A DNA stretch of 64,000 nucleotides from Actinomycetes bacterium (GTDB taxonomy: Bacteria > Actinomycetota > Acidimicrobiia > Acidimicrobiales > Bog-793): positions 53,029 to 117,028 of the forward strand of contig JAKABW010000003.1 in the NCBI GenBank assembly GCA_021796535.1, given 5' to 3'. The position numbers and the translations under genes were made by a program. The first letter of the stretch is position 1. Each line of letters opens with the position of its first letter. Shown here one piece after another: positions 7,497 through 62,005 of this stretch. The notes under the pieces were generated by a model, which saw only the letters and a program-made list of their open reading frames with translations, did no database searches and was not told the origin of the DNA.

Positions 7497-7577
7497 ACAA
7501 CAAAAGCAGCCAAAATAACAGAAATTTCTACTTTTGACGAAATAGGGGCTTTACTTAGACTAATCTAACTCTTCGCA

Positions 7578-15367: not shown

Positions 15368-18300
15368 TTGTCTCTCCGTCTTTTCCTTCCGCCGCCACGG
15401 CGGCGTCATCCTCCCCGGAGACTTTTACCGCTGCGGTTTTCTTTTTGAAGCCGGATCTTGGGACGGACTTGCGTTCCGTTTTTCGCTGCTTCGCTTCTTT
15501 GGCATCGGTCTCTTCCGGTTCCGGAGCGGCTTCTGCTTCGGCGGTTTTGGTTTCTTCCGGTTCCGGAGCGGCTTCTGCTTCGGCGGTTTTGGTCTCTTCC
15601 GGTTCCGGAGCGGCTTCTTCCCTGACATCTTCCGGGTTACTTTCGAGCCCGGGAGCCTCCTCCGACGGATCTTTTCCCATTTCGTCGGTTTGTCTTGCCC
15701 TCTGAGTGTGTTTCGACACCAAAGCGTTCAGGTTTACGGCGTGGCGTGTGCCGTAAGTATCGGATCCAGGATCGGCAACCACCGCCACAGGCAGAGGCGT
15801 GTGTCTCTGTCTGCGCTTGTCTTCCCTGCGTCTCCGCAGGACCAAAAGGATTAAAAACCAACTGCCGATGAGTTCTGCCGCCAACAAAAGAGCCCGTAAA
15901 AAACCGGGGACGGAACTTTTTAGAACGGGCTGCGCTGCCAGTGCCGGCTGTGTCTTGAAAAGCAATACGCCGCCTTCCGAAGGCAGTTGTTTCAGGTCAA
16001 GTTGATTGGTCAGTCCCGTCGTCACACCCAACGGAATTGGCTCCGGAGTGCTATTTTGCACTCCGGAAAGTTCCGGCGCCAAAGATGTGAGCACCACCAC
16101 ATAACCTATGCGGTAGCGGGACAGCACGGAACCGAAATTGACCGTCTCGGCGTCTTTTACTTTTTGCAGCTGGTACAACACCGGGTTATAAAGACCCATA
16201 TCCGGACTTATCCACAAGTTTGTGATATCGGGGAGATTTCCTCCTGTTACGGCAACACTCAAGTCCGGCCCGATCTGATGGGAAGCCCCCGGTAAAGCTG
16301 CCGGACTGCCCACCCACAATATGCGGGGGGCTCCCGGAGAGGGGGCGGACGGAAAGAAGGAGAGTGTGGTGTCGTATCCGATGTCGGGAACAGACCATCT
16401 GCCCCCTCCTGCGGCGGTGGCAGCCTGTACCACAACACCGAAAGCCGCAATCGCAAACACCGGCGTCACCATCTGGCGCCAGCTGAAATTGCGGCCCGGC
16501 AAATCGGTAAGAATGGCCTCGAGGGAAAGCCCGAACATAACGGCAACGACTGCCGCCGGAATTACCAAAAGAGCGGCCAGATCTCCGCCAGCCATGCCCA
16601 GCCAACCTCTCCCGAAACAAAAGATTATTATCCAGGCGAATATCGCCGTAAAAAGCAGTCTTGAACCGAGAAAAAATCTCTCCCGTCTGGCAATAGTCAG
16701 TCCGGTCAGTGCACATACCCCGACCGCATACCCGAGCCATCCGCTCCCCACCGGACCCAAGTCAAAACGCAACAGGGCGGCCAGAGAGGGAGACTGAGCG
16801 GCACCCGGGACTCCTCCGAACAGAACGGAAAAATTAAAACCCGACTGGAAAATTGTAATTGACCAGGGAAGCAAAATAATTAAAGCTGCCGTGAGAGAAA
16901 ATATTGTCCTTATGAACACACCCAGTGCCAACCGGTAATTTGAAAAAATAACCAGAGTAACAGGCAAACAAAGCCCCACTATAAATACTGCCAGCAAGAG
17001 AGGCGGGGCAAAAGAGGCCGCAATTGCGATCAGCAGACCGAGGGAAAAATATTCCAAGAGGTTCTCTTTGGAAAAAACACTGCCTTTTTCGAAACGGAGG
17101 GCACCGGAATTGCCCGGATAACCGCTTTGCATGAAGCCGATAAGCCTAAGAACGATATAGGGGAAAGCGCCGTAACAAATAATCGCTTCAAACCGCCCGG
17201 TGGCCACGTCGTTGAAGTAAAGGGGCAAAAACATATACGATAAAGCCGCCGCCACTCTGGCAAGCCTGCCCGAAGTACCTTTTGCCGCTTTACCGACAAT
17301 ACGGGATACGCCGTAAGGACCGAGGAAAAGCATGGCAAAAGCAATTGCTTTTACGACCAATGCTGTGGATCCAAAAAAGATAAATCCTAAAATGCCCAAA
17401 AACAGATAAGCCGGCGACACGGGCCCCGGGGTTTGTGAACCGGCGTAAGTGGTGCCTCCGAAAAAGTGTGCCAGCAGATAAGCGGGAGAAGGGGCGGGAA
17501 GCCACTGCCCGTACAAAGGCAGATTTCCCACCAAAAAAGACCTGCTACCGATAAAAATGATCAATACAGCCATGGCAAGCGGGAGCACGAAGTCTCTGCG
17601 CCGAAGTTTGGCTCCCAGTTTTCTCTCATGGAGGCGTTGCGTTATAACTGTTTTTTCTTCGGTAGCTTGATCAAAAATGTGCTCCAGGCCATCTCTCACG
17701 AAGCGTCTGGCCCGCGTCCCTGTGCCGGTAAAGAAAACCGATACCTCTTTATCGCTTCTCAGCCTGTAGGAAGATATTGCCTTGCGCTCTTTTTTGATGT
17801 CTCCCCAGTTGGCGATGTTCCAACGCCAGGCCGTCACGACATGCTTCACCCTCTGCCGTCTTCCCAGGGCCATAAAAAAGCCGACTTCGGCCAGAGATAG
17901 CAGGAAAAACTGCAAGAGCACAAGAGGAAAACGGGCAGAGGAGTAATTTTTCAAGACGGCCCGCAGTTCGTGGCGCCATTGCAATGACCTTGCCGCCGGC
18001 AGGGGTTTCTGCCTGCTGGCCGTGGCTTCTCTGTGTGCGACGCGAGCCGAAGGGGCCACCATGACCCTCGCTCCGGCCAAATGCGCCCGCCAAGAAAAGT
18101 CTATGTCTTCGCCGAACATGGTCATCTTTTCGTCTAGCCCGTTCAGCGTGGCAAATAGGTCACTTCTCACCAGTTTGCAGGCACCGGGGATGGCAAAGGT
18201 CTCGTGGACCTCGTCGTACTGGGCTTGATCGAGTTCGCCGAAACCGACCCTTCGCACAGGAGCGCCGAATTTGTCGACATCAAGCCCCACCTGAAGGAGT

Positions 18301-25296: not shown

Positions 25297-26094
25297 ATGA
25301 AAAGTAGACCCAGCTGGTTCGGCAAACACAAGATACTGACGGGTGCGCTGATACTGGCGATCATCGTAATCGCTTCTGCTTACGCCGGCAGAAACTCATC
25401 AAAGACGAACTCGGCGACAACTGCCAATGCAGGTAAACCCAAGACAAGCACAACAAGCGGCCAGTCGACCCACACTTCAACGGTCAGAAAAGTAACCGGC
25501 ACGACAACTGCCAATGCAGGTAAACCCAAGACAAGCACAACAAGCGGCCAGTCGACCCACACTTCAACGGTCAGAAAAGTAACCGGCACGACAGTGACAC
25601 TGGGAGCTGGTACATTTACCGGCGGTACGGATGTGGCTCCCGGTCTTTATAACGTTACGCCCGGTCCCGGTCAAAGCGGAAACTTCATTGTTTCCGGGAC
25701 GGATACTTACAATGAGATACTGGGGGTTAACAGCGGTATTGGCGTTCCATCAGTCAGAGCGCAGATATCCAAAGGCGACCAAATCCAAATCTCCGGTCTA
25801 AGCAATGTCACGTTCACGCCAGTTACATCACCTTATATAACAACCCATAGCGCAGTAACGCTCGGGGCCGGAACTTGGATAGTTGGTCAAGATATCGGGG
25901 CCGGCCGGTATATAGCTAGGCCTGCTTCTGGACAAAGCGGAAACTTTATGGTTTCCGGAGCAGACTATTACAACGAGATACTGGGGACCAACAGCACTTA
26001 CGGCGAAGTGCCCAACCTTACTGTAAATCTGAGCGACGGCGATACAATTCTCATCTCCGGCATGTACGGCGTTACCATGACACCGATAAGCTGA
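25297..26094 (+). CDS. membrane-anchored hypothetical protein with internal repeats
   Basis: 265-aa ORF with an N-terminal TM segment (ILTGALILAIIVIASAYAG). A 29-aa unit is duplicated exactly: TTANAGKPKTSTTSGQSTHTSTVRKVTGT. Two homologous modules of about 85 aa follow: VTLGAGT...G.D...G.Y...P..GQSGNF.VSG.D.YNEILG....G..P.......GD.I.ISG...VT.TP. Confidence 0.7.
   Translation: MKSRPSWFGKHKILTGALILAIIVIASAYAGRNSSKTNSATTANAGKPKTSTTSGQSTHTSTVRKVTGTTTANAGKPKTSTTSGQSTHTSTVRKVTGTTVTLGAGTFTGGTDVAPGLYNVTPGPGQSGNFIVSGTDTYNEILGVNSGIGVPSVRAQISKGDQIQISGLSNVTFTPVTSPYITTHSAVTLGAGTWIVGQDIGAGRYIARPASGQSGNFMVSGADYYNEILGTNSTYGEVPNLTVNLSDGDTILISGMYGVTMTPIS
25415..25593. repeat. perfect 87-bp tandem duplication (2.06 copies) inside the CDS
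   Basis: Positions 25415..25506 are identical to 25502..25593 at an offset of 87, checked base by base at both ends. The duplication is in frame (29 codons). Confidence 0.9.
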
Positions 26095-26638: not shown

Positions 26639-28498
26639 TTATTGTAAATCTCTTATTTGTTTCAAAAATTGCTGTGCTTTTTTATGCGCCGGATCCAAGC
26701 TGAGCACCTCTTTCAGCCTTTCTGCCGCCGGGTCGGTTTTCCCCTGCAAAAACAAACAAACGGCCATATTGAAGGTCTCCGCCGGGCGGGGGCCGCGGCG
26801 TTCCCTGTGGCGATACAACAGTTCCAAAGCCGCGTCTATCTCACCCACGGATGCCAGCAGAGTGGCCATAAGAGAAGCCAGATCGACACTTTTTTTAGCG
26901 TCTTTATCATCCGAAATGTCTGTTTTATCCGCGCAGTCAAAATCCGTTGCCGGCACAACACCGCCCGGTTCTATGTCTTGAGTATCCGTTATGCCGGAAG
27001 AATCCGTCTTTGGCAACTCCCGTAAAGCGTTATTGACAAAAATATCCATGGGGAAATGTCTGGAGTCGACTTCCAGTAGCACACGAGCCACTTCATCCGT
27101 TTTATCGGGGGGTTCTTGTGTCAAGAGTTCTTGCAATCTGTCGTAAACTTGGAATAAAAAATGAGCGTCATACCCGGAGGCTCTGATGGCTATAACCAGG
27201 TCGGCCAGAGAAAGCTCTTTTTTATGGTGTCGCAATTGATAGAGCACCAAAAAAAGTTCTTCCGGGCTTTGTTCGGCTACTGACATGTAGAATTCTTCCC
27301 TGAGGGAAAGAGGCTCTCCTTGTGTAAACAAAAAGGCACACACCTCCAGACCGACCGGGACCGGATCGGCCCGCAAGAGTTCTCCACCGCTGTGCGATGC
27401 CGCAATTGAGAGAATGTTCATATCCACAGGCAAAGAAAAGGTGGAGCCGTGCACGCCCATGGACAACAGATTGGCCGGACATATAGCCTCTTTCTTACCC
27501 TCCACGGAAACTTTTTGCTTGCGGCGCAGCCGGGTCTCCGGACTTGGGTTATCGGAAAGACCGGGAACTTCGCTGCCCTCTTTTTCTTCCTCTTCGTTCT
27601 CGGAGTCTTGGCGTATTCCGCCCGGTCTCTCCGCCACCAACAGCATCATATTCCCGTCGGTAAGATTGTGCAGGTTTTTGAGAGCGACAAGGGGGGCTTT
27701 GGGAAACAAGAATCTTACCGGGTCTTCTTCGTCCGAAAGGCAGGACCTATAAAAATCCGCCGCTTTCCGCAAAACGGCATTCAGAAAGTCGTCTTCATAA
27801 TAATTTGTGGAGTCAATGCTTTTCCTGTCGACGGCAAACCATAAACGGGAAAGCAAATCCGGTGAATCCCAGTTTATGCCGGGGTCATCCCCTACCGGCA
27901 TCACCGATTCTTCAAACGTTTCCGAAGAAGACACACAAAAAAGATCCTGCGGCAGTACGTCAAAAAGATAATTGGCCAAAAAAACCGTCGGCGCTTTGGC
28001 GGTACCAGGAGCTATTTTCTTTTTTGAGACCAAAAGATTTATTTCCGTATCGCGCAACACATCATAGTGTGCGTAATCGATGAGTCCCTCTTTTGCCAAA
28101 GCGTTCAGGTACTTATGCCCGGACCAAAAATCTATATTGTCCTTTATCACATCGCTCAGCACATAAACTATTTTTTGCCGCGAAGGAAAGCGTTTGTAAT
28201 AAGACATAAAATTCCAGGCAAGCCTGCCGGTACCGGCACCGAGTTCAACCACGTAAACGACTTCCGAAGGCTCGTCAAACACTGTATTGCGTTCACAGTC
28301 CTCCAAATACGCTTGCAGTAAACGCCAATAAGCTTTGGCAATCAGCGGTCCCGTCGTCAAAAGGTAGGGAACTTTTCCGGAAGACCAAGAGGCGACCCCA
28401 TTTTTGTTATAGGAATCATCCATCAACCGCCAAAGCGCCGTTTCGGAAAGGCGCCCCGGCTTATCGATAACATACCCTTGCCGCGTTTTTATCCCCAA
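26639..28498 (-). CDS. uncharacterised 619-aa protein: MidA/NDUFAF7-like class I SAM methyltransferase N-domain, acidic linker, unknown middle domain, C-terminal TPR-like repeat
   Basis: SAM motif I VYVVELGAGTGRL, and a later FLANYLFDVLPQD that resembles the MidA-family NEFFDALP motif. Acidic linker DSENEEEEKEGSE. The C-terminus (AVCLFLQGKTDPAAERLKEVLSLDPAHKKAQQFL) looks TPR-like. Its start overlaps the upstream DUF218-like gene by 10 nt. Confidence 0.45.
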   Translation of the reverse strand: MGIKTRQGYVIDKPGRLSETALWRLMDDSYNKNGVASWSSGKVPYLLTTGPLIAKAYWRLLQAYLEDCERNTVFDEPSEVVYVVELGAGTGRLAWNFMSYYKRFPSRQKIVYVLSDVIKDNIDFWSGHKYLNALAKEGLIDYAHYDVLRDTEINLLVSKKKIAPGTAKAPTVFLANYLFDVLPQDLFCVSSSETFEESVMPVGDDPGINWDSPDLLSRLWFAVDRKSIDSTNYYEDDFLNAVLRKAADFYRSCLSDEEDPVRFLFPKAPLVALKNLHNLTDGNMMLLVAERPGGIRQDSENEEEEKEGSEVPGLSDNPSPETRLRRKQKVSVEGKKEAICPANLLSMGVHGSTFSLPVDMNILSIAASHSGGELLRADPVPVGLEVCAFLFTQGEPLSLREEFYMSVAEQSPEELFLVLYQLRHHKKELSLADLVIAIRASGYDAHFLFQVYDRLQELLTQEPPDKTDEVARVLLEVDSRHFPMDIFVNNALRELPKTDSSGITDTQDIEPGGVVPATDFDCADKTDISDDKDAKKSVDLASLMATLLASVGEIDAALELLYRHRERRGPRPAETFNMAVCLFLQGKTDPAAERLKEVLSLDPAHKKAQQFLKQIRDLQ

Positions 28499-29100
28499 TC
28501 TACTCGCGTAAAGCCTATCACTTTGCCCACAGCCACCGCCGAGGCCTCTTTTGCCAGCTGTCCCACCCCGGCAAGCGACACGGCTTCGGAATTGATGGCC
28601 GGCGACATCTGGATAGACAAGCGATTATCGGCGGCAAGATTTTCTATATAGGCAGCCTGCAATGCGTCTGCCACAACGGTAATCAGGCGATTTCTCCCGA
28701 CTGTGCCGGCCAAGGCAGAAAAAGTGCCGGGCACGGAAGAGGCGGACAAAATGCTTATCCTGCTTGGCGGTATCTTATTCGAAATCAAATATTCTTTGGA
28801 AAAAGTAATATTTTTCCCATTTCCGGCCAAAATGACATGCTTTGCCGGACGGATGTCATAGATATCTACGGCTTGGTTCAAACGGCTTACCGTGTCCGCC
28901 GATAACTGCGTACTCGAAGATGCAGGACCGATGATCAAAATGGTGTTTGAGGTTTTCAGAACGGCTGCGGAGGTGGGCAGCTCTGAAGCGGCATAAGTAA
29001 GGTAACCGCAATACACGTAGAAGGCCAGCAAAAGAAAAAGAACCAAAGATATCAATCTTCTGATCCAAGCAAAAGGTGAAAATAAGGAAAGTATCGACAT
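28489..29100 (-). CDS. DUF218/YdcF(SanA/ElyC)-like membrane-anchored protein
   Basis: 203-aa ORF with an N-terminal TM segment (LISLVLFLLLAFYVYCGYL). The DUF218-like core is ILIIGPASS...SRLNQAVDIY....AKHVILAGNG...EYL....IP.SRI......S..T.... Confidence 0.5.
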   Translation of the reverse strand: MSILSLFSPFAWIRRLISLVLFLLLAFYVYCGYLTYAASELPTSAAVLKTSNTILIIGPASSSTQLSADTVSRLNQAVDIYDIRPAKHVILAGNGKNITFSKEYLISNKIPPSRISILSASSVPGTFSALAGTVGRNRLITVVADALQAAYIENLAADNRLSIQMSPAINSEAVSLAGVGQLAKEASAVAVGKVIGFTRVDWG

Positions 29101-41748: not shown

Positions 41749-41858
41749 CGCACCTTATATCCGCCGCCGATTCCGACCATCGCACTTGTCTGCAGTCAAG
41801 CTGAAAATTCGCTGTGAAATCCTTGTCGGCACCGCCGACTTGTGTAATACTTCGTTAT

Positions 41859-42968
41859 ATGAAAATATTATCAAAATTTAAAAACGGCGCAACTCCCGTT
41901 GTTGCCGGTTTGGTATTGATAGCCCTGGTAGCCTCATCGTGTTCTTCCGGTACGAATTCCAGTGCCGCCAAACCCACTCCCGTCAAGTCGGCCAACGTAA
42001 CCGCACTCCTGAAAAATATCTATGCCAATTCTCAAAACGCCAAAAACGTAGACGAAAATATCTCATTTGGTATAACCAATATACCTTACATACTCCAATC
42101 TTCGGGCAACCTGTCGCCGGCGGCCAAAAGAAAGGAGGCGATGGCTCTTGCTATCATCCCCAAATTCTCCATCAACCTGGCCGCAAGCAAGACCTCTTCC
42201 GGGGTCGGGAATCTAAATGAACTGATCGGTTTTGATTACTCTTCCCAACCGATCGGACAAATCATACTGACGACGAAAAACGCTAAACTGAGTGCTACAT
42301 ATTTTAAGGTGGATTTGGCCGCTCTGGCCAAATTGCCGTTGCCCTGGCCGGCAAGCGTAAAAAACGAACTGGGTTTGGTCGGAGCCATAATCCAACCCAC
42401 CTGGTATAAAATTCCTTCGGCCCTCGTCGCCAGAGCGTCAACTTTACCCACATCCGGCACTCAAAAAATTCCCGGCGGCCTGAAAAGCATTAAAGCTTTT
42501 CTCAAGAACGACCTCATACTGGCTTCCATCCTGCCAGAAGCTTTCAAGTCACAGGTAATTACCAACCAGGGCGGAGAAACAATCAATTTTTCCAACAACT
42601 TATATGCCCTGCTCAAGTGGTGGGGTGCATCCGGGATAAAGCAACTGAGACAACTGAAGCTGCTGACTCCGGCCGAAATGACAAAATTGACGATATCCGA
42701 AAAAAGTTTTGCCCAAGCCAAAGCCGAAAAACTCAACAAAGATACGATAACTGCTTCCATGGAAGCCACTTCGGCCAACGAGTTGACCGACTTCAAGGTC
42801 GTACTTTCTCTTGTTGTGCCCTCAAATACAACACAAAAGGTTGAAATATCGGTGAGTGTACCCATCACTTACAATACGCAAGTGACGCCGCCTTCCAATG
42901 CCGTCACTCTGCCGCCTTCTATTTTGGGAGGGCTGGGCGGAGGCAGCCTTCCGTCGGGAGCGCTTTAA
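41859..42968 (+). CDS. hypothetical lipoprotein
   Basis: MKILSKFKNGATPVVAGLVLIALVASSC has a lipobox-like ASSC, followed by SSGTNSS. I recognised no catalytic motif. The ORF track starts at 41814. Confidence 0.6.
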   Translation: MKILSKFKNGATPVVAGLVLIALVASSCSSGTNSSAAKPTPVKSANVTALLKNIYANSQNAKNVDENISFGITNIPYILQSSGNLSPAAKRKEAMALAIIPKFSINLAASKTSSGVGNLNELIGFDYSSQPIGQIILTTKNAKLSATYFKVDLAALAKLPLPWPASVKNELGLVGAIIQPTWYKIPSALVARASTLPTSGTQKIPGGLKSIKAFLKNDLILASILPEAFKSQVITNQGGETINFSNNLYALLKWWGASGIKQLRQLKLLTPAEMTKLTISEKSFAQAKAEKLNKDTITASMEATSANELTDFKVVLSLVVPSNTTQKVEISVSVPITYNTQVTPPSNAVTLPPSILGGLGGGSLPSGAL

Positions 42969-43235: not shown

Positions 43236-44303
43236 ATGATGCAGACACGTTTAAAGAAAAAAACAGCGTTGCTCTTCTCCTTTGCTCTCCTTCTTCCCCT
43301 ACTGGGGGGTTGTGCGTCGTCGTCGGGAACTGCCAAAAGCGTTTCATTAAAACTTGCCGGAAAATACCTGTCTTATTCCTTGCCGGAACTAAAAATGCAG
43401 CCGAAGTTCATACTTAATTTGAACTTCCGGGGATCAAAGCTGGGCGCCGAAACTCAGTTATTTGACGGCTTGGAACTCTCCGTCGCGCTGAACGCCGGGC
43501 CACGGAATGCGGCAATGCCCCGTTCTGAGTCAAAAGAGTTTGACTCGTACACCCTGCGCTATAACGGCAGACAGATCCTTACCTTGATCTACGCCGGCAC
43601 CGGAGAAATCCTCTTTCGCGTCGAGAGAAACAACGCCTTGCTCTTTATAAAAAACAACCCGACGTTATCCGGTACCTACCTGAAATATGCAATACCTTTT
43701 CTACGTAACTCCTGGTATCAAATTTCTTACCCAAAACTCTTGCAAAGCATAAAACAAATTTTTGCCTATTTGCCCTTCCCCACCCCGGCCATTGCCTCAA
43801 ACGGCTTGACACGACACGAAGCACTCCCGGATCCCGTGTATCTCCTTGTCGATGTGCTATCCCAGGTGGCGCTGTTCGGCATTGCCCATCACTCGGCCGA
43901 GGCCGACGAAAGAAACGGTTTGCTTGTCATCAACTCCTCCGTCGGCTCCCAAAGCATTTTGGCGACCACGGCGCACTTGCTATCCGGAATCGGGCTTTTG
44001 GACCCCCTGAGCCGCTACATCGACAACCTGGCGCTGAATTTCCCGCCGACACAGGTCAACTCAGCCGTATCCCTGCGGATGAATACGCCGCCCGGCGGCG
44101 GAAAGAAAACACCGCGGCCGGAAATCTTGACGGAAAATATACAGGACAGCATGACCAGCGGACTTTTAAAACTTGAAATCAACGCGACGACAGAACGCGG
44201 GACGGCTGTAGTACATTTTCCCGTGCATGTCAAAACGCTTAACCCCAAAATAACGGGGAGCCTGCGCCCCCTCCTTTTTGAACTTTTGCGGCACTATTTT
44301 TAA
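43236..44303 (+). CDS. hypothetical lipoprotein
   Basis: MMQTRLKKKTALLFSFALLLPLLGGC is a classic signal peptide with an LLGGC lipobox. I recognised no domain. Confidence 0.65.
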   Translation: MMQTRLKKKTALLFSFALLLPLLGGCASSSGTAKSVSLKLAGKYLSYSLPELKMQPKFILNLNFRGSKLGAETQLFDGLELSVALNAGPRNAAMPRSESKEFDSYTLRYNGRQILTLIYAGTGEILFRVERNNALLFIKNNPTLSGTYLKYAIPFLRNSWYQISYPKLLQSIKQIFAYLPFPTPAIASNGLTRHEALPDPVYLLVDVLSQVALFGIAHHSAEADERNGLLVINSSVGSQSILATTAHLLSGIGLLDPLSRYIDNLALNFPPTQVNSAVSLRMNTPPGGGKKTPRPEILTENIQDSMTSGLLKLEINATTERGTAVVHFPVHVKTLNPKITGSLRPLLFELLRHYF

Positions 44304-53411: not shown

Positions 53412-53483
53412 GCGGGTGTAGCTCAATGGTTAGAGTCCCAGCCTTCCAAGCTGGTTATGCGGGTTCGATTCCCGTCACCCGCT
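53412..53483 (+). tRNA. tRNA-Gly (anticodon UCC)
   Basis: Hand-folded 72 nt. Acceptor GCGGGTG/CACCCGC, D arm GCTC/GAGT, anticodon stem CCAGC/GCTGG with loop CTTCCAA, T arm GCGGG-TTCGATT-CCCGT, discriminator T. CCA is not encoded. Confidence 0.9.
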
Positions 53484-53738
53484 CCCGATGCCCGTATTCG
53501 AACTCGGGCACGTTGAAGATGCCGTCGAAGGGCGAACGGTACTCCTCGCGGCAGATCCGCCCGTCTTTCATGCCGAGCCGTTCGAACACCGCTGCGTTGA
53601 ACCGCTTGGGGTGCAGTCGGTGCCCTTGCGGTAGGCGTCTCCGCAACCGGTGGCGACGAGCTCCGGGGTCGCATCGTTCACCGGAACGCGAAATCCTCCG
53701 AGAAGGAGCGGTGCGTTATCGGCTCCCGAGCGTGACAT
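53484..53738 (-). pseudogene. truncated and frameshifted ORF remnant of unknown family, abutting the tRNA-Gly 3' end
   Basis: Reverse-strand ATG at 53738 gives MSRSGADNAPLLLGGFRVPVNDATPELVATGCGDAYRKG... The sensible reading then switches frame to HRLHPKRFNAAVFERLGMKDGRICREEYRSPFDGIFNVPEFEYGH and runs straight into the tRNA gene without a proper end. G+C is high, like the rest of the segment. Confidence 0.4.
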
Positions 53739-53770
53739 GGGGCTGATCGTAATCTAGGCGTTTTGACAAA

Positions 53771-53808
53771 GTCAACCTGGTTGTCTACTATTGGGCAACC
53801 AGGTTGAC
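53771..53808. promoter_or_regulatory. 13-bp perfect inverted repeat (12-nt spacer), operator-like, between divergent remnant genes
   Basis: GTCAACCTGGTTG-tctactattggg-CAACCAGGTTGAC. It lies 13 nt upstream of the hydrolase RBS AGGGAG. Confidence 0.55.
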
Positions 53809-53820
53809 GATTCAAGGGAG

Positions 53821-54713
53821 ATGGACATGACTGCAACAGTAGGGCAGGTCTCACTGGCCGGGGCTACGCACCATTACGCCAAGGTCAACGGGACTGAGTT
53901 GCACTACGTGGCGGCGGGCACTGCAGGAACTCCGGTTCTGCTGGTCCATGGGTTCCCCGAAACGTAGTGGACTTTCCACAAGCTCATCCCGCTGCTCGCC
54001 GACAGCCACCGTGTCTATGCACCGGATCTGCGCGGGTTCGGTGACTCTGACAACGGGCCGGGCGCCTACGACAGCAAGACCTCCGCCGAGGACCTGCACC
54101 TTCTGATCGAACAGCTCAACCTCGGCCCCGTGCACCTCACCGGCCAAGACATCAGCGGAGCGACTGTTTTGCGCCTCGCCGCTACGCACCCGAGGATGTG
54201 CTCAGCTTCACCGCCATCGAGATGGGTCTCCCCGGGTTTGGCCTTGAGAGGCTGGCCGACGTCACCCACGGAGGTATTTGGTATATCGGCGTTCTTGCCG
54301 CTACCGGGATCCCCGAGATGCTGCTCGCCGGTCGTGAGCGCGAGTTCCTCGGACAGTTCGCCTTTCCGGCCATGAGTGCCACCCCCGGAGCAATTATCGA
54401 CGCCGACATCGACGAGTTCGTTCGCACCTACTCCCGTCCCGACGGCTGGCGCGGGGCGATCGGGCTTTACCGGTCCATGCTCCAAGAAGGCGACGAGATC
54501 GCAACCCTTGTCGCCGGCCACAAGCTGAGCCTCCCGGTGCTGGCGATCGGGGCCGGAGGCGGCGACTTCACCTTCGCAACGATGCGCCAGGTCAGCTCTG
54601 ATCCAGTCCGGTCAGTGATGCTCGAAGGCGTCGGCCACTACGCAGCCCTGGAGGCACCCGACCGGGTGGCGCACGCTCTTCTCGACTTCTTCAGAATTGT
54701 TGACGGCTCCTGA
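53821..54713 (+). pseudogene. alpha/beta hydrolase (epoxide hydrolase/haloalkane dehalogenase-like, Asp nucleophile) inactivated by one nonsense codon and one frameshift
   Basis: ...ELHYVAAGTAGTPVLLVHGFPET-TAG(53965..53967)-WTFHKLIPLLADSHRVYAPDLRGFGDS...VHLTGQDISGA...ATHP. A -1 frameshift near 54191..54194 follows. The reading then continues as EDVLSFTAIEMG...SRPDGWRGAIGLYRS...PVLAIGAGGGDF...LEGVGHYAALEAPDRVAHALLDFF. Sample lines give 65-68% G+C. Confidence 0.75.
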
Positions 54714-55130
54714 ACGTCTGGATCCCTACCCGACCACCCAATCGAAGCGCCCAGACCGCAGCGCGCCAACGCCTCGCTCAGGGCAGCGCGTCCGGTCGGG
54801 GATCCTGCAACGGACACGCCGGACCCGTAGGCGAGCTGAGTCACGGCCGCATCCCTGCTATGTTGAGCGCACCCGGCGCCGAACCGCCTACCATCGCGAG
54901 CATGACTGACGCGGACGCAAAGTCAGTCCGGCACTTCGACCCCGGTCATTGCTGCGGTCACAGATGTCGAAGCAGCTCTCCGCCGAATACTGCTCTTTCA
55001 AAAACTTCTTTGCGCTCTTTTTGCGGGCGACGCCCACCCGACTCTCCGCAGCACCGCGTTGCCTTTCCCTCCAAAAGCCCGCCGCCCCGGATAAGTATTT
55101 TTGACGCCATGCGCAAACCGGTTTCCAGCC

Positions 55131-55167
55131 GCTATAGTTAATGCGAAGAGTTCGCATTAACTATAGC
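55131..55167. repeat. 37-nt perfect palindrome (17-bp arms, 3-nt centre) at the high-GC/native boundary
   Basis: GCTATAGTTAATGCGAA-gag-TTCGCATTAACTATAGC. It is AT-rich, lies 15 nt upstream of the APC permease ORF start, and has no adjacent T-run. Confidence 0.85.
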
Positions 55168-55181
55168 CAACGGAGAAAATT

Positions 55182-56669
55182 TTGCCGGCACGGGAAGAGC
55201 GATTACATCCGGAGACGAAAACCGCCGGGGTATCTTTCGCGTCGCAAGACTCGGGCAAAGATTCTTTTCCGGAACAAGAAAACTCTTCCCGGCAGAAAAG
55301 CCTTGCCCAGCGCCTCGATTTGAAAGATCTGGTTCCGCTGTCGGTTTCCAGCGTCGGACCGCTTTTTTCCGTGGCGGCAACCGGCGGCGTTATGGCGGCA
55401 TATGCCGGCGTGTGGACACTGCCGGCCATCTTTCTTTTGGCCTTTCCTTTCCTCGTCTCCAGCTTCGTCTTCAGACTGCTGAACAAACATTTTCCGCAGG
55501 CGGGGGCTTCCTATCACTGGTCGGCCCGTGTTTTGGGAGAATCGGCATCCAGATATCAGGCCTGGATACTGATTCTGGCTTACTTCACTTCGATTCCGCC
55601 CATTGCCATACCGGCAGGCAGTTATACCGTCGCCCTCCTTGCCCCCAGGTATCAATCCTCTTCCGTCCTGGAAGCCGGAGTTACGCTGTTTTGGATTATC
55701 TTTGCGGCCGTACCTCTCCTTTTGGGCGCCAAGCCGACGGCCAGGATCACCCAGGTATTTTTCGCCGTGGAAATGCTGGCGTTGACGGCTTTTGCCGTTA
55801 TCGGTGTTTCCAGGCTCGGTAAAATATCGGTACCGCTTCACTTCTCCAAGCCGCCGATCGGCGGCATGTTGGTGGTCGCCGTAATAGCCGCCACCATTTT
55901 AGACGGTTGGGAAATCGACTCTTACGCCGCCGAAGAATCCAAAAAACCCAGGGAACACCCCGGACTGGGAGGCATAATAGGAGCCTTTGGGGCCTTGCTC
56001 TTTTATGCCGTATTGTACCCTCTCATGATAGGAGAAACCCCCATCCGCAAGCTGGCCGGTTCAAGCGATCCTTTGGCCGTCTGGGCAAACCGTCTCATAC
56101 CGGGACACGGCTGGGCCATGCTGATACCGGTTCTGGCTTCGACCGCCGGAGGACTTTGGCTTACCACCTACATACTCACCAGAGCGCTTTACGCAATGGG
56201 CAGGGAACGGTTACTGCCGGTGAGTTTTGCCAAACTGAACAAGCGCCGCGTGCCGGGCTTTGCCGTCGTCGTCACTTTGTCTCTGACGTTTTTGGTGGTG
56301 CTCGGCGAAACTTTTGTCGGCTCATTGTCGGATTTTTTCAAACTGATTTTGTCGGCAGCCGGCTTTTTTATCTTGGCGGAATTTTTTATGGATTCGCTTA
56401 CCGCCGTCATGTTTCTGGCGTTCGGACACAAAAAGCTTCCCGAACTCTCCGTCCATCCCCACCGACACAAAGCCCTTATGTTCTTCTCTTTAATTTCCAG
56501 TCTGATGATGGGGAGTTTGCTCGTCGCCTTTTTCGTCTACGGACCCAAGGCCATAGGCGCCGGAATAGACCAGACTTTGCTTGTCTTGCTGATGCTCGGC
56601 GCCGTTTTCACTTATCTGAGTAGGAAAAAGACCGCTTCCCCCTTTGTATTTGAAGGAAAATCTGTCTAG
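55182..56669 (+). CDS. APC-family amino acid/polyamine permease
   Basis: 495-aa ORF with about 12 TM segments. The N-terminal DLVPLSVSSVGPLFS pattern is typical of the APC superfamily. The start codon is uncertain (TTG at 55182). Confidence 0.75.
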   Translation: MPAREERLHPETKTAGVSFASQDSGKDSFPEQENSSRQKSLAQRLDLKDLVPLSVSSVGPLFSVAATGGVMAAYAGVWTLPAIFLLAFPFLVSSFVFRLLNKHFPQAGASYHWSARVLGESASRYQAWILILAYFTSIPPIAIPAGSYTVALLAPRYQSSSVLEAGVTLFWIIFAAVPLLLGAKPTARITQVFFAVEMLALTAFAVIGVSRLGKISVPLHFSKPPIGGMLVVAVIAATILDGWEIDSYAAEESKKPREHPGLGGIIGAFGALLFYAVLYPLMIGETPIRKLAGSSDPLAVWANRLIPGHGWAMLIPVLASTAGGLWLTTYILTRALYAMGRERLLPVSFAKLNKRRVPGFAVVVTLSLTFLVVLGETFVGSLSDFFKLILSAAGFFILAEFFMDSLTAVMFLAFGHKKLPELSVHPHRHKALMFFSLISSLMMGSLLVAFFVYGPKAIGAGIDQTLLVLLMLGAVFTYLSRKKTASPFVFEGKSV

Positions 56670-56670
56670 T

Positions 56671-57360
56671 CTATAAGATCCCGTGGGAGGACACTTCCGC
56701 TTTTTCTTGGTCACCGAGCGCCGGATTAGCGTGAGATATCCGCATATGCAATGCGATGGCCCCGCTTGTTACGGCAGCCCATCCGCACCAAACGGAGGCA
56801 AAACCGTCCACCGTCAATTTGGCTATGACGGCCACCGCTATCAGATTGACGGCGCCGAAAATCACCACATGACGTTGACCGGAAATCAGGAGCGCACCGC
56901 ACACGGATGCCACATATGCCGCGACCAGCGGGAGCGAATCTTTAATTCCCAAGTGATAAGCGACGTGATAGGGTGCCTCCGTAGCGCCGTAGTGGCCCTG
57001 CAGCATGGCTTGGGCCAGCATCAGACCGACAAAAAGTCCCATCAAACAAAAGGGAACCGTCACGTATCGACGTTTTTTGGAAGGTTCGATAAGCAATACC
57101 GCAAGCGGTACGTATATCGGCAAAAACACCATGGCGATTGCGAGATAAACAGCGGTGGCAAGATGGGTAAAGAAGTGATCCACGTGGCCCTGCAGACCGA
57201 ACCATACCACAGATTCCACCAATTGATGAAAACCGAGTATGACGGGAAGCGCGGCGAGCGGCAAATACCTCTTCCGTCTCTGCACATGAAGTAAAGCGTC
57301 CGCTCCTATACCCGTAATCAGGGTTCCGCCGATGAGGTCGGCCTCCGGGGAAAAACACAT
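56671..57360 (-). CDS. DUF6629-like polytopic membrane protein
   Basis: I chose the ATG at 57360 (MCFSPEADLIGGTLITGIGADALLHV...). It starts 2 nt after the murD-like stop. The ORF track extends to 57522, inside the upstream gene. About 7 hydrophobic segments. Confidence 0.55.
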   Translation of the reverse strand: MCFSPEADLIGGTLITGIGADALLHVQRRKRYLPLAALPVILGFHQLVESVVWFGLQGHVDHFFTHLATAVYLAIAMVFLPIYVPLAVLLIEPSKKRRYVTVPFCLMGLFVGLMLAQAMLQGHYGATEAPYHVAYHLGIKDSLPLVAAYVASVCGALLISGQRHVVIFGAVNLIAVAVIAKLTVDGFASVWCGWAAVTSGAIALHMRISHANPALGDQEKAEVSSHGIL

Positions 57361-57362
57361 GT

Positions 57363-58796
57363 TCAGAACCTTTCCTCTTCGGCGATAATAGCTTCGACCT
57401 GAGCGGCAAAGTCTTCGGAACGCTCCAGATAATTCCTGTACTGACTGAAACTCGGTGCGGCCGGCGAAAGCAAAATCACCGGGGATCGGGCGGTTTTTCT
57501 TTCCGAAAGAGATTTTGCCCACACAAAACCTTCCCTCAGGGCGACTTTGAGAGTTTCACAGATACAGATATCGGTTCTCTTTCCGCCGGAGTTTCTCAGT
57601 AAAAAATGTCCGTCGGGATGTTGTTCAACGGTTTCGTCTGTTTCCGCCAGGTATTTTTCTGCTATCCTCCGGCCCGCTTCCGAAAGAACCAGCATGCACA
57701 ACGGCTGTCCGTGATGACGCAAGGCCCCTATCAGCTCCGAATAGTCTATCCCTCTGTCCGAACCGCCCAGAATTATGGCCACCGGGTGATCGGCATAGGC
57801 AGAAAGGGCGGCTGCTGTCGGCAGGGCGTTGGTGGCCAACCCGTCATCAATAAATTGTATGCCCCCGTATTCCGCCACTTTTTCCATCCTGTGCGGAAGA
57901 GGAGAAAAAGTTGACAGAGCCTTTACAAGAGATTCTTCATCCGCTGCCATTCCGATGCTCTTTATCACTTCCAAAGCCAACAGCGCATTTCTTTTATTGT
58001 AAACCCCCGGCAAAGAAAATCCCGGCAGGTATTTTTCCGCCGCATCTTCGTCATAGCAAACCATGGAGGGGGAAGGGCCAAGCAAAACCGCATTCTCTTG
58101 CAAATTGACGTCGTCGCCGTTGACAATCACTCTCTCTACGCCGGGCAGGGTGCATAGTCTCAGCTTATCCCTATAATAAGTTTTTAAGTCACCCCTGTGC
58201 CAGTCCAAGTGATCCGGCGCAAGTGCCGTAACTACGGCCGTAGCCCCGGCCGAGCAAAGATCGGCCGTCTGAAAGCTGGACACCTCGATGACCGCCCAGT
58301 TGCATTCGTCGAAACCGCTCCTCGGATCCCAGGGAACCGTCCCCAGATTTCCGAAAGAGCCGGCTTTTTCCCCGAGTGAGGACAGAAGGTGCGCTATCAG
58401 AGAAGTGGTGGTGGACTTGCCTTTCGTGCCCGTCACCATGATGATATTTTCTTTTTCCCTTCCTTCCAGAAAAAGAGCCATCCCGCCTGCCACCCTAACT
58501 CCGTTTTTGGCAAGTTCTTCCGCCTCGATGCAGTAACGGCTTATGCCGGGGGCCTTGATCACCACTTCGCAGGCCAAAAGCGGGGAAATATCGCCGTCTG
58601 TCAACCGCACAAAATCAAAGTTTTCGCCTTCCAGCCCGGATATCTGAGAGCGCTCTTTTGTATCCGCCAAAAGGGGGGTTACCCCCAAAGACTTCAGGTA
58701 AAGATAACTGGCCGCGCCCTCCTTGCCCACTCCCCATAAGGCGACATTTTTGCCTCTCAGGTCGGCAAAAGACAGCGGTTCAAAGGAAGACATCAC
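57363..58796 (-). CDS. murD2: MurD-type Mur ligase paralog (candidate UDP-MurNAc-L-Ala--L-Glu ligase MurD2)
   Basis: 477-aa ORF. MurD-like N-terminal Rossmann fold GKNVALWGVGKEGAAS, VIKAPGI, and P-loop VTGTKGKSTTTSL. It is not in a dcw-type neighbourhood. Its start overlaps the stop of the upstream 476-aa gene. Confidence 0.6.
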   Translation of the reverse strand: MMSSFEPLSFADLRGKNVALWGVGKEGAASYLYLKSLGVTPLLADTKERSQISGLEGENFDFVRLTDGDISPLLACEVVIKAPGISRYCIEAEELAKNGVRVAGGMALFLEGREKENIIMVTGTKGKSTTTSLIAHLLSSLGEKAGSFGNLGTVPWDPRSGFDECNWAVIEVSSFQTADLCSAGATAVVTALAPDHLDWHRGDLKTYYRDKLRLCTLPGVERVIVNGDDVNLQENAVLLGPSPSMVCYDEDAAEKYLPGFSLPGVYNKRNALLALEVIKSIGMAADEESLVKALSTFSPLPHRMEKVAEYGGIQFIDDGLATNALPTAAALSAYADHPVAIILGGSDRGIDYSELIGALRHHGQPLCMLVLSEAGRRIAEKYLAETDETVEQHPDGHFLLRNSGGKRTDICICETLKVALREGFVWAKSLSERKTARSPVILLSPAAPSFSQYRNYLERSEDFAAQVEAIIAEEERF

Positions 58797-60210
58797 GCAA
58801 GTACCCGGGAATAAAATTTTCTCCGCTGGGGTGCATCAGCTCTTCAATTTCCCGTTCGGTCACCAAATTCGGTGAGCCGGGAGCCGCCGCTGCGGCTGCG
58901 AGGCTCTCCGCCGGGCCGTCTCCCTTTCTGTCATCCCGCTCCAACGCCAACTGCAGAGCCGCCCTGCACTCCGTCACGTCCCCCACGCATTCAAAAGGCT
59001 TTGCGTAAAGACCGAGCAGGGCCAGGAATCTGTCGTGATTTGCTTCCGCCGAAAGCGGTTCCGCTCCCGCAAATATTTCTTCCAATTGGTATTTTGACAA
59101 AAAGGGCGCAAGTATTAGGTCGATAAAGCAACACTTGTCACAGACCCCGCACCATTTATCCAAACGCTGACCCGGATCGATATGAAAAGCTCTGTTACAG
59201 CTCCTGAACACAGGTAAATAGGTATCACACGATACGAAACGCCGAGCTATCCACAACTCGCTGAGCGGTCTCAGCAAAGAAAAGTAACTTATAGCACCGC
59301 CGGTAACGTCTTTGACCATGGCGTGCAACATGGCTTCGAATTCGATGCCTTTGGACCATTGGTGGTTCACCGTTTTGTCCCCCAATACAGAACCCGAGGA
59401 TGCCGATTTCTCGTTGGACATTACCGCATGGTTAAAACCGTTGAGATGCGCCGACACTACCGCCGCTGCGGAGATAACGGCCGTGATAGGAACGTGACCG
59501 TTCAAAAGGCCGAGCGAAACGGAATCCAGTATCTTTTCGTCAAGCTGTCTTTCCAACCTTACCACCGGCAATTTGGCCGCCTCCGCGGCATTTTCGATGG
59601 CGGCATATCTGTCGTTCAGCCTGCTCATGACGAAAAGTGAGATTTCGTCAGCTTTATGGCGCAAAAGTTCCAGGGAGGTAAGAGAATCTATGCCGCCGCC
59701 GAAAGGAAGCAAAACTTTTATCCCGCCTTCGGGTATCGACTCCTCCGAAGCCGGATCCGCCAAAGGAGATGGGCGATTGGGGAGGACCGCCCCGGGGTGG
59801 CTCTCCCCCGAACCGGACACAACGGCGGCTCCTGCTGCGTCAAAAAATGACAGCCCGGGCAATTCCAGGTTATTTCTGTACGCCATCTCTTCCAGCCCGC
59901 GGGAGTAAACGGCTGCCGTCAGCGCCGCTTCGGAGGAACTGACCGGCATATTTTTAAAATTCAGTCTCGAAGGCAATCCGGCTTTGTAGTAAGAGACGCC
60001 GGCCACAAAATACAGTACATCAAGGAGTTTTCGTGCCGTCAAGTCCCAATCGTAACCGGACCCGAACAAAAACGTTTCCGTAAAGGTCAGCTCTTTTCCG
60101 CGTTTGGCGTTGGGCTTGTCCCAAAGCAGTTGATAGCGGAAAAGCACCCTGCCGGTATCCCCGTCCAAGTCATAGCCCAAGAAGTTGAACTCTTGCGCTA
60201 TTTCGTTCAC
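58780..60210 (-). CDS. murL: PP-loop-like ATP-utilising protein, candidate UDP-MurNAc-L-Ala-L-Glu epimerase MurL
   Basis: 476-aa ORF with a GTG start behind GGAGTG. It has a PP-loop-like LLPFGGGIDS, then NGHVPITA, and a C-terminal Cys cluster WCGVCDKCCF. It is translationally coupled to the MurD-like ligase. Confidence 0.45.
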   Translation of the reverse strand: MNEIAQEFNFLGYDLDGDTGRVLFRYQLLWDKPNAKRGKELTFTETFLFGSGYDWDLTARKLLDVLYFVAGVSYYKAGLPSRLNFKNMPVSSSEAALTAAVYSRGLEEMAYRNNLELPGLSFFDAAGAAVVSGSGESHPGAVLPNRPSPLADPASEESIPEGGIKVLLPFGGGIDSLTSLELLRHKADEISLFVMSRLNDRYAAIENAAEAAKLPVVRLERQLDEKILDSVSLGLLNGHVPITAVISAAAVVSAHLNGFNHAVMSNEKSASSGSVLGDKTVNHQWSKGIEFEAMLHAMVKDVTGGAISYFSLLRPLSELWIARRFVSCDTYLPVFRSCNRAFHIDPGQRLDKWCGVCDKCCFIDLILAPFLSKYQLEEIFAGAEPLSAEANHDRFLALLGLYAKPFECVGDVTECRAALQLALERDDRKGDGPAESLAAAAAAPGSPNLVTEREIEELMHPSGENFIPGYLRDVFL

Positions 60211-60374
60211 AGTTCACACTCCAGAAATTGAATGCAAGCCATAAAAAGACTCGCCGCCCCTACAATATTTAGAGTCTATTATCGATTCTCGCAAAATGAC
60301 GGCAAAAGATCGGTTTAATTGCGCTGACGGCTTTTGCCGCCGCGGAATCGTGGAATTTTGGCGGCGACAAAAGC

Positions 60375-61379
60375 CTATTGCCGGTTTGCGGTCCCCAGAG
60401 CTTTTTGCGCGATCCTCTCCAGCAAATCGTCGGTTTTTGGATCCGGCTTGGTGTATTCCGGGTGTGCCTCGTAGAAAGACATGACTTTCGCCGCCCCCTC
60501 GGCAAAGGGAACCAACGCCTGCCAGCCGCGGGCCACGGATTTAATTTTTGAATTGTCGAAAATCACCGAATACGATTTGTCGCCCAAAAAAGACGGCCCC
60601 CATTCCGGGGCCGCTTTCGCTATTGCCGACGAGGGAAGGTGGACGTAATCCACTTCACAGATCCCCGCTGCTTCGGCGACAATGTGATAAATCTGGTTCC
60701 AGGTCAGAACTTCGTCGGATGTAATGTGAAAACTTTCTCCCACAGTGGCTTTGTTGGCCAACAGGGCGGTAAAAGCTCTAGCAAAATCCGTATTGTAGGT
60801 CAGGGTCCAAAGGGAAGTTCCGTCTCCGTGAATTACCACGGGCAAACCCTGCCGCATCCGCCTTATGACGCCGTAGCCGCCTTCGAAAGGCAACAGGGTT
60901 TTGTCATAAGTATGGGAAGGACGCACTATCGTGGCGGGGAAACCGTTGTCACGGTACTCTTTCGTCAACAACTCTTCGCAGGCTATCTTATCCCTGGAGT
61001 ACTGCCAGTAGGGATTGACGAGCGGCGTGGACTCCGTGACGGGCAGCCTCTGCAGAGGCTTTTGATAGGCAGAGGCGGAACTGATAAATATATATTGCCC
61101 GCACCTGCCGTGCCAGATGTTGACATCCCGTTCGATGTGTTCGGGCGTAAAGGCTATGAAATTGATCACGCAATCAAAATCTTTGCCCGACACAGCCTCT
61201 TTGTATTCGCCCGCTTCTCTGACGTCCACTCTTATCAGTTCGGCTTCTTCCGGTATCTGCCGCAACTTTGTCTGTGAGCGGTTCAGCAGGGTTACCTCGT
61301 AGCCTTTTGCCAAAGCTTCCCGTACACAAGCCGAACTGATGATACCGGTACCGCCTATAAAAAGTACCGATTTTGTCAA
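60375..61379 (-). CDS. NAD-dependent epimerase/dehydratase (extended SDR) family protein
   Basis: 334-aa ORF. LFIGGTGIISSACVREAL (GxxGxxG) and a later YxxxK-type region (YSRDKIACE). Confidence 0.8.
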   Translation of the reverse strand: MTKSVLFIGGTGIISSACVREALAKGYEVTLLNRSQTKLRQIPEEAELIRVDVREAGEYKEAVSGKDFDCVINFIAFTPEHIERDVNIWHGRCGQYIFISSASAYQKPLQRLPVTESTPLVNPYWQYSRDKIACEELLTKEYRDNGFPATIVRPSHTYDKTLLPFEGGYGVIRRMRQGLPVVIHGDGTSLWTLTYNTDFARAFTALLANKATVGESFHITSDEVLTWNQIYHIVAEAAGICEVDYVHLPSSAIAKAAPEWGPSFLGDKSYSVIFDNSKIKSVARGWQALVPFAEGAAKVMSFYEAHPEYTKPDPKTDDLLERIAQKALGTANRQ

Positions 61380-62005
61380 ATTGTATCGCTTTCTGCCAGT
61401 TTGTCTCTTTTGAGAACCTTAAGTCTATGGTAGACAAAAACTGCCACGGCCACAACCACCACAACCAACAAAACATAGGCGGCGTATTGGAAACCGTTGG
61501 CCACGGAATGCCATGCCGACCCTACGGCATAACCGAGCCCGGCCAAAACGGCGGAATATACCAAGGTGCCGAGAGCCGTAAAAAGGGTAAAACGCCAAAA
61601 GGTCATTTCCGCTATTCCGGCGGCCAAGCTGACGAACGTCCTTATCAAAGGCATCGCTCTGCCGATGGGCACGGCAATGTCTCCGTGCTTGGCAAAAAAG
61701 CGGTCCGTTCTGTCTATATCCGACTTTGAAATCAATACGTACTTGCCGAACTTATAGACGAACGGTCTCCCTCCCGCTTTGCCCACGGCGTAGGAAACGA
61801 AGGATCCCAACACTTCCGCCACGGTGCCCAATAAAATTACCGCCACTATATTCAGATGGGGGTCCCCTGGTTTATGTAGCAAGCCTCCGGCCAAAGCCCC
61901 CGCAAATCCGAAAGTCACCTCCGAAGGGATCGGTATACAGCACGCCTCTATGAAGGCTAAAACGACTAGGGCAAGATATCCATGACTTATAATAAAAGAT
62001 TCCAC
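61376..62005 (-). CDS. DedA family membrane protein
   Basis: 209-aa ORF. HGYLALVVLAFIEACCIPIPSEV and the later GR..P.IRTF.S..AG motif. Overlaps the SDR gene by 4 nt. Confidence 0.85.
   Translation of the reverse strand: MESFIISHGYLALVVLAFIEACCIPIPSEVTFGFAGALAGGLLHKPGDPHLNIVAVILLGTVAEVLGSFVSYAVGKAGGRPFVYKFGKYVLISKSDIDRTDRFFAKHGDIAVPIGRAMPLIRTFVSLAAGIAEMTFWRFTLFTALGTLVYSAVLAGLGYAVGSAWHSVANGFQYAAYVLLVVVVVAVAVFVYHRLKVLKRDKLAESDTI

Follow-up and report, generated by a model that had tools for sequence, protein, structure and literature searches.

Gene arrangement at the murL locus

The DNA under study is a 64-kb stretch of contig JAKABW010000003.1 from an Actinomycetes bacterium, referred to in the following as the window, and the element in question is a set of three closely packed genes on its minus strand that had originally been predicted to contain an actinobacterial MurD2/MurL pair, i.e., a ligase attaching L-glutamate to a peptidoglycan precursor and an epimerase acting after it. 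The first gene, murL (60210..58780), encodes a 476-aa protein that was recognized as a MurL homolog through the NCBIfam MurL model, Pfam, BLASTP and an AlphaFold2 model. It is followed by the gene for a MurD-type ligase (58793..57363, counted from an ATG start), identified by the model TIGR01087 and by a residue signature, and then by a gene for a polytopic membrane protein of 229 aa (57360..56671) that belongs to Pfam family PF20334 (DUF6629). There are two candidate start codons for the ligase, GTG 58796 and ATG 58793, which lead to an overlap with the murL stop codon (58782..58780) of 17 and 14 nt, respectively, and public gene calls use the ATG. The ATG of the DUF6629 gene at 57360 is located 2 nt past the ligase stop, with GAGGAAAGG just ahead of it. 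A mechanical list of open reading frames (ORFs) stretches this gene to GTG 57522, inside the ligase gene, a start that gene callers do not use. The features on which the original prediction was built are all present in the sequence: the ORFs, the motifs FGGGIDS (residues 170-176) and CGVCDKCC (residues 354-361) in the murL product, the 14-17-nt overlap and the 2-nt gap in front of the DUF6629 gene. In full agreement with the claim that the ligase gene resides outside a division and cell wall (dcw) context, neither a dcw gene nor murI is found within the window.

Sequence evidence for MurL

Sequence comparison identifies the 476-aa protein as a MurL homolog over its entire length. It matches the NCBIfam model NF041275 (MurL) with an E value of 1.4e-90 and 304 bits, with residues 5-472 aligning to positions 7-440 of the 447 positions in the model. 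Precomputed Pfam annotations list the domains MurL_N and MurL_epimerase_C for P0001, a database entry with the identical protein sequence, and for the gene at locus L001, while our local copy of Pfam, which is older than the MurL models, yielded no match for the protein. A BLASTP comparison with the MurL protein from Xanthomonas sacchari, annotated by the Prokaryotic Genome Annotation Pipeline (PGAP), gave an alignment of 415 residues with 38% identity and an E value of 1e-62. The window protein keeps 80 out of 80 columns that are invariant in a family alignment of 63 sequences. The invariant motifs include PFGGGxDS, SNExSAS, NHQxSK, FRSCN, WCxxCDKC and CVG..E.R, and the four cysteines Cys338, Cys354, Cys357 and Cys360 are present in all 63 sequences. 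Within the family, the protein is part of a small divergent clade with relatives that are 65, 55, 55 and 53% identical to it, compared with 42-48% for the bulk of actinobacterial MurL proteins. A sequence search of the PDB with MurL returned nothing relevant, and no solved MurL structure was among the entries.

MurL-like paralogs with 31-32% identity, annotated as hypothetical proteins, are encoded on three Pseudonocardia plasmids, including P. alni pPaSha1 (L179, 5959-7359). The gene on pPaSha1, the only one of the three loci inspected, has no adjoining Mur ligase gene and is surrounded by genes for a WD40-repeat protein and a helix-turn-helix (HTH) protein. The MurL family thus has members outside the murD2 context.

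Residue signature of the MurD-type ligase

The ligase ORF (58796..57363, minus strand) carries VTGTKGKSTTTS, and its product shares with canonical MurD the three-domain Mur ligase architecture, the P-loop and the residues N138, H183 and K198. It scores 261.5 bits on the TIGR01087 murD model (cutoff 212), has 29.5% sequence identity with E. coli MurD and matches E. coli MurD structures with an E value of 1e-40. The Pfam match to MurD-like_N is weak (21.5 bits) and stays under the cutoff of 27 bits.

The reference system is that of Xanthomonas oryzae (Xoo), where MurD2 and MurL are XOO_1320 and XOO_1319, respectively (Feng et al. 2017; reviewed in PMC8788868 and PMC5808125). In the Xoo ligase, the E. 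coli MurD residues D182, K348, A414 and L416 are replaced by E197, R358, P433 and F435, respectively (PMC8788868). An E197D exchange alters the stereospecificity of the Xanthomonas enzyme, the double mutation E197D/R358K flips it, and K319T makes E. coli MurD accept L-Glu (PMC8788868). We compared the window ligase with 72 other murL-linked ligases, all of the actinobacterial type, and with X. sacchari MurD2 as a proteobacterial reference. The lysine at E. coli position 319 is lost; it is replaced by Leu in the window ligase and in 72/72 murL-linked ligases and by Ile in X. sacchari MurD2. Arg takes the place of K348 in the window, in all 72 sequences and in X. sacchari. A414 is exchanged for Pro (57/72), L416 for Phe (66/72) and F422 for Tyr (69/72), and for each of these three positions the window ligase and X. 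sacchari MurD2 have the same residue as the majority. Thus, the MurD2 states at the equivalents of Xoo R358, P433 and F435 are all present in the window ligase. The single departure from the Xanthomonas pattern named above concerns position 182, where the window ligase has Asp like the E. coli enzyme, in common with 72/72 actinobacterial murL-linked ligases, whereas X. sacchari MurD2 has Glu. From this signature of murL-linked ligases, the window ligase appears to be of the MurD2 type. It contains the motifs DDGLATN, RGIDY and SPAAPSF, and the patterns DD[SG]L[AS]TN, RGIDY and SPAAPSF offer a simple signature for separating murL-linked ligases from canonical MurD, which matters as the former are routinely named 'D-glutamate ligase'.

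The signature bears directly on a different explanation of the locus, namely that the ligase adds D-Glu like any ordinary MurD and is the sole MurD in the genome, and that the MurL-like protein performs, for example, some other adenylation-dependent modification of a muropeptide precursor. The score above the TIGR01087 cutoff and the Asp retained at the position of E. coli D182 are compatible with such an assignment, and PGAP calls even the Xanthomonas partner of MurL a 'D-glutamate ligase'. On the other hand, an ordinary MurD is difficult to reconcile with the replacement of K319 and K348 by Leu and Arg and of A414 and L416 by Pro and Phe, as in murL-linked ligases and, save for the Ile at 319, in X. 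sacchari. The near-obligate adjacency of the two genes detailed in the next section argues for a joint function, and the pairs from Xanthomonas, Micromonospora and Salinispora have been shown in vitro to consist of an L-Glu ligase and an epimerase (PMC8788868). We consider an ordinary MurD at this locus highly improbable.

As an aside on annotation, the X. sacchari sequence NZ_CP010410 (L178), in which MurD2 is encoded at 6139-7575 and named 'D-glutamate ligase' by PGAP, exemplifies a systematic annotation issue for MurD2. Note also that this record is mis-typed as a 508-kb 'plasmid' and carries core genes (lysA/aspartate kinase, ssb).

Conservation and spread of the murL-ligase pair

A scan with one genome per species revealed MurL relatives in at least 564 loci or species genomes, and the count of gene order given next covers the best 80 of these. 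In 77 of the 80 other genome loci, the gene directly after murL encodes a MurD-type ligase and has the same orientation. For the remaining three, the ligase gene is located 3.4 kb downstream in one case, and the contig ends at murL in the other two. X. sacchari exhibits the same gene order as the window with an overlap of 20 nt. The similarity to the Xanthomonas system therefore extends to the two-gene unit, its order, the gene overlap, the full-length MurL homology, the location outside dcw, and the R/P/F/Y residues of the ligase combined with the loss of the K319 lysine. There are also differences. The window ligase and MurL are only 33% and 38% identical to their Xanthomonas counterparts, respectively, the window MurL has an insertion in its N-terminal domain and a longer linker, and the translationally coupled DUF6629 gene is an addition to the Xanthomonas arrangement. 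The orthologs from Micromonospora sp. and Salinispora tropica, which were active in vitro (PMC8788868), stem from the same phylum as the window pair. The distance of the window clade to other actinobacterial members is considerable, with a median identity of 40% for the ligase and the 42-48% already mentioned for MurL.

The pair resides outside dcw in Xanthomonas, in most Acidimicrobiales loci and in most of the other loci inspected. An exception is Frankia sp. Cr3 (L006, 1-17264), where the dcw genes are arranged in the order ftsI-murE-murF-mraY-[murL-ligase]-ftsW-murG-murC. Here, the pair occupies the canonical murD slot between mraY and ftsW, an argument for the murL-linked ligase serving as the cell's MurD. 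The ligase gene appears in two ORF pieces in this draft genome.

The genomic location is also of relevance for the idea that the pair is an accessory system alongside canonical murD and murI, serving either as a backup route to D-Glu or in the synthesis of another glycopeptide polymer. Within the window, the operon indeed lies outside any dcw context, and the ligase-less MurL-like paralogs on the Pseudonocardia plasmids indicate that the link between the family and core peptidoglycan synthesis is not a strict one. However, a location outside dcw is equally the rule for Xanthomonas and most Acidimicrobiales loci, the Frankia pair takes the place of murD, and the published murL-carrying genomes are devoid of D-Glu-forming genes (PMC8788868). 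An accessory role therefore seems improbable to us.

With regard to the host, LepA encoded in the window is 77-81% identical to LepA from metagenome-assembled genomes (MAGs) labelled Acidimicrobiales or Acidimicrobiaceae, and the organism is probably an uncultured member of the Actinomycetota resembling Acidimicrobiia, as far as can be judged from sequence comparison. This sets it apart from the Micromonosporaceae with their characterized pairs. The nearest genome with the same operon is labelled 'Actinomycetes bacterium LSA5.bin10'. MurL relatives form more than 7,000 protein clusters. With these and the at least 564 species genomes, the MurD2/MurL route would be far wider in Actinomycetota than the few genera of the 2021 review, and the bypass of glutamate racemase would reach an uncultured Acidimicrobiia-like lineage not named in the literature. 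A MAG labelled Gemmatimonadota (L021) contains an actinobacterial-type murL-ligase pair, with a MurL 43% identical to that of the window; this is due either to a binning error or to horizontal transfer.

Predicted fold and putative catalytic frame of MurL

An AlphaFold2 model of the window MurL, calculated from the 63-sequence alignment, reached a pLDDT of 92.5 and a pTM of 0.93. Its N-terminal domain (residues ~1-130) is connected through a poorly ordered linker of low confidence (~131-160) to a large alpha/beta domain of the QueC-like PP-loop type (~165-476), which starts with the GGGIDS loop. When the model was compared with the PDB using Foldseek, the top match was QueC from Bacillus subtilis (3bl5, E 7.5e-6, TM 0.65 on target), followed by QatC, Erwinia QueC, LarE, argininosuccinate synthase (ArgG), NAD synthetase (NadE), TilS, TtuA and MnmA. 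QueC, QatC, LarE, ArgG, NadE, TilS and their kin are PP-loop ATP pyrophosphatases that activate their substrates by adenylation, and in the case of QueC, the 7-cyano-7-deazaguanine synthase, it is a carboxylate that is adenylated. The C-terminal domain of MurL is thus predicted to adopt a QueC-like PP-loop ATP pyrophosphatase fold. An hhalign comparison of the MurL family with the single E. coli QueC sequence places GGGIDS on the SGGQDS PP-loop, and the same weak alignment (E 0.0045, probability only 7.7%) brings the MurL segment SCN...CGVCDKC with Cys338, Cys354, Cys357 and Cys360 into register with the cysteines in TCY...CGHCAAC of QueC. These four residues are candidates for a QueC-type Cys4 zinc site.

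The likeness to QueC has its limits. The window MurL has no QueC match in Pfam or NCBIfam, it has an additional domain at its N-terminus and additional helices at its C-terminus, and the reaction would be an epimerization rather than the formation of a nitrile. The guess that the 476-aa protein is PP-loop-like was borne out by the predicted fold. The original prediction had also set membership in a QueC-like family against the assignment as MurL. Since MurL itself has a QueC-like fold while the protein is MurL by sequence, the two properties do not exclude each other.

In the literature, MurL is described as a protein without known domains (PMC5808125, PMC8788868). Its reaction requires ATP and Mg, yields AMP and proceeds unidirectionally from the L to the D form (PMC5808125), and adenylation of the alpha-carboxylate has been put forward as a hypothesis (PMC5808125, PMC8788868). 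A QueC-like PP-loop fold fits the need for ATP and Mg, the release of AMP and the hypothesis of these authors. We found no paper in the searchable open literature that ties MurL to the PP-loop fold, a link that may have been noted elsewhere. The predicted fold together with the four invariant cysteines would provide a concrete mechanistic frame for MurL, with residues amenable to testing.

A probable route for D-glutamate into peptidoglycan

Taken together, homology, synteny, residue signature and fold suggest a three-gene operon that serves to bring D-glutamate into peptidoglycan by an alternative route, and we assign a probability of roughly 0.8 to this reading. The assignment as an actinobacterial MurD2/MurL pair, which formed the core of the original prediction, gains support from the MurL homology, from the almost universal adjacency of the two genes and from the ligase signature. 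The window operon is a divergent member of the known MurD2/MurL pathway, and databases already annotate it; the family is evidently common among uncultured Actinomycetota. By the known but rare route, L-glutamate would be attached first and then flipped to the D form. MurL would convert the terminal L-Glu to D-Glu, most likely by adenylating the alpha-carboxylate of the Glu residue, with pyrophosphate and later AMP being released. In contrast to the combination of canonical MurD and MurI, inversion is predicted to take place after ligation, on the nucleotide-dipeptide, and to cost a second ATP. The glutamate-site residues of the ligase (K319L, K348R, A414P, L416F) likewise distinguish it from canonical MurD. 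Translation of the ligase and MurL, and also that of the third protein, would be coupled by the overlapping or closely spaced stop and start codons.

Several observations speak against this interpretation. The 304 bits on NF041275 are far under the equivalog cutoff of 700; such a value is to be expected for a distant actinobacterial MurL, as the model is named for Xanthomonadales. The equivalent of Xoo E197 is Asp in the window ligase, i.e., the canonical MurD state, and not Glu. The agreement with QueC in the hhalign comparison is low, and the motif match rests mainly on the fold. Finally, a canonical murD, murI or a gene for a D-amino-acid aminotransferase may coexist outside the 64-kb window.

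The third gene, encoding a DUF6629 membrane protein

The product of the third gene matches profile positions 1-197 of the 209 positions in PF20334 with an E value of 1.1e-35 and 123.7 bits, well above the cutoff of 27. Its AlphaFold2 model (pLDDT 87) consists of a bundle of seven to eight transmembrane helices with a beta hairpin. Invariant residues comprise an N-terminal CFSPxAD motif and several His, Glu and Cys residues. The model had no significant match among PDB folds, and a literature search on DUF6629 returned nothing relevant.

A DUF6629 gene follows the ligase gene in the window species and in L005, which encodes the relative with 65% MurL identity. The same arrangement is seen in L092 and L093, with a gap of 1 nt in L092; here MurL comprises 494 aa and matches the ~54% relative P0005. 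Upstream of the operon, the genes for a PD-(D/E)XK nuclease, an alpha/beta hydrolase, DedA and SDR are syntenic between L005 and the window. The downstream amino-acid permease gene of the window is absent in L005 and present in L092; the trio thus persists while its flank changes. Outside this clade, the picture is different. No DUF6629 gene was detected within 8 kb in any of 78 other murL loci, in line with the statement in the original prediction that DUF6629 lies outside the system as described. Conversely, neither murL nor a MurD-type ligase gene was present within 5 kb in any of 80 metagenomic DUF6629 loci whose proteins are 48-60% identical. When DUF6629 loci outside the window clade were inspected (L086-L091, L098-L177), genes for GAF-ANTAR regulators were encountered within 5 kb in 30/80. 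The link between DUF6629 and murD2 is real and narrow, being confined to one clade, and the addition of DUF6629 to the operon would be limited to this narrow Acidimicrobiia-like group.

These findings allow us to judge whether this clade uses DUF6629 as a functioning third part of its pathway, be it as a membrane anchor or scaffold or as a transporter or enzyme for glutamate or a lipid-linked precursor. The spacing of only 2 nt (window) or 1 nt (L092) behind the ligase stop is in favor of such a function, as are the maintenance of the trio in three lineages with MurL identities of ~54-65% in spite of the altered flank, and the conservation of DUF6629, which is higher than that of MurL when the window is compared with L005 (83% vs 65%). 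The complete lack of co-occurrence in the 78 murL and 80 DUF6629 loci speaks against it, just as the tendency of DUF6629 genes elsewhere toward GAF-ANTAR regulators does, and the fold yields no functional clue. It is rather unlikely that the clade has recruited DUF6629 as a functional partner at the membrane for the route in which L-Glu is attached and then epimerized. If true, DUF6629 might tether MurD2 and MurL to those steps of precursor synthesis that occur at the membrane, or it might be involved in handling glutamate or one of the precursors, which would provide a first functional handle on the family and define a three-component variant of MurD2/MurL. As it stands, the coupling is a lineage-specific curiosity and a weak lead on an uncharacterized membrane family.

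Transcription and neighboring genes

Two further genes are located upstream of murL on the same strand, as originally described. One encodes a DedA/VTT-domain membrane protein of 209 aa (61376..62005, minus strand; Pfam VTT_dom, E 2.3e-19) and the other an SDR protein of the epimerase/dehydratase family with 334 aa (60375..61379, minus strand; Pfam Epimerase, E 7.9e-27). They overlap by 4 nt. The stop codon of the SDR gene is separated from murL by 165 nt. This gap contains a hairpin with a 15-bp stem directly 3' of the SDR stop codon (60329..60375, minus strand) and a promoter-like site 5' of murL (60278..60305, minus strand; TTGCCG-16 nt-GATAAT), which a consensus scan picked up with 9/12 matches and which is putative. 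The hairpin was missed by a consensus scan for terminators, its loop being longer than 8 nt, and became apparent upon direct RNA folding. It has a folding energy of -30.7 kcal/mol (z -4.47), none of 200 shuffled sequences folded equally well, and it is not followed by a U tract. It likely acts as a terminator or processing element that divides dedA-SDR from murL. Because of the hairpin and the promoter-like site in the 165-nt gap, murL, the ligase gene and the DUF6629 gene probably constitute a transcription unit of their own.

The best NCBIfam match of the DedA protein is the undecaprenyl-phosphate transporter UptA (NF052604), with 115 bits under a cutoff of 250. The translationally coupled dedA and SDR genes, which are kept in L005, possibly represent an envelope-related pair just upstream of murL. 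A dedA gene is present within 8 kb in only 5/78 other murL loci, and with DUF6629 in 0/78, we rejected DedA, SDR and DUF6629 as a general envelope module of the MurL family. Of the 'extended envelope module' proposed in the original prediction, the coupling holds within a narrow clade, yet it does not characterize the system as such, and the module itself is unproven. The arrangement is better described as lineage-specific, since neither the DUF6629 link nor the DedA/SDR neighborhood extends beyond a narrow clade and DUF6629 genes elsewhere occur in unrelated contexts. On the other side of the operon, a gene for an APC-family amino-acid permease (55182-56669, plus strand) converges on the DUF6629 gene, with the two stop codons 1 nt apart. 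A role of the permease in glutamate supply is speculation.

Housekeeping genes in the window comprise lepA, hrcA, dnaJ, gltX, ybeY and a gene for an era-like GTPase. Five ORFs coding for 203-603 aa (13598-15409, 41814-42968, 43236-44303, 25297-26094 and 28489-29100) had no Pfam match at the thresholds used. In the region 53412-55150, a gene for tRNA-Gly(tcc) (53412-53485) precedes a patch of ~1.6 kb with a GC content of 62-65% compared with ~52% around it. The patch contains small ORFs without Pfam matches, one of which (54198-54713) resembles the C-terminal piece of an alpha/beta hydrolase, and it is possibly what remains of an integration at the tRNA-Gly gene.

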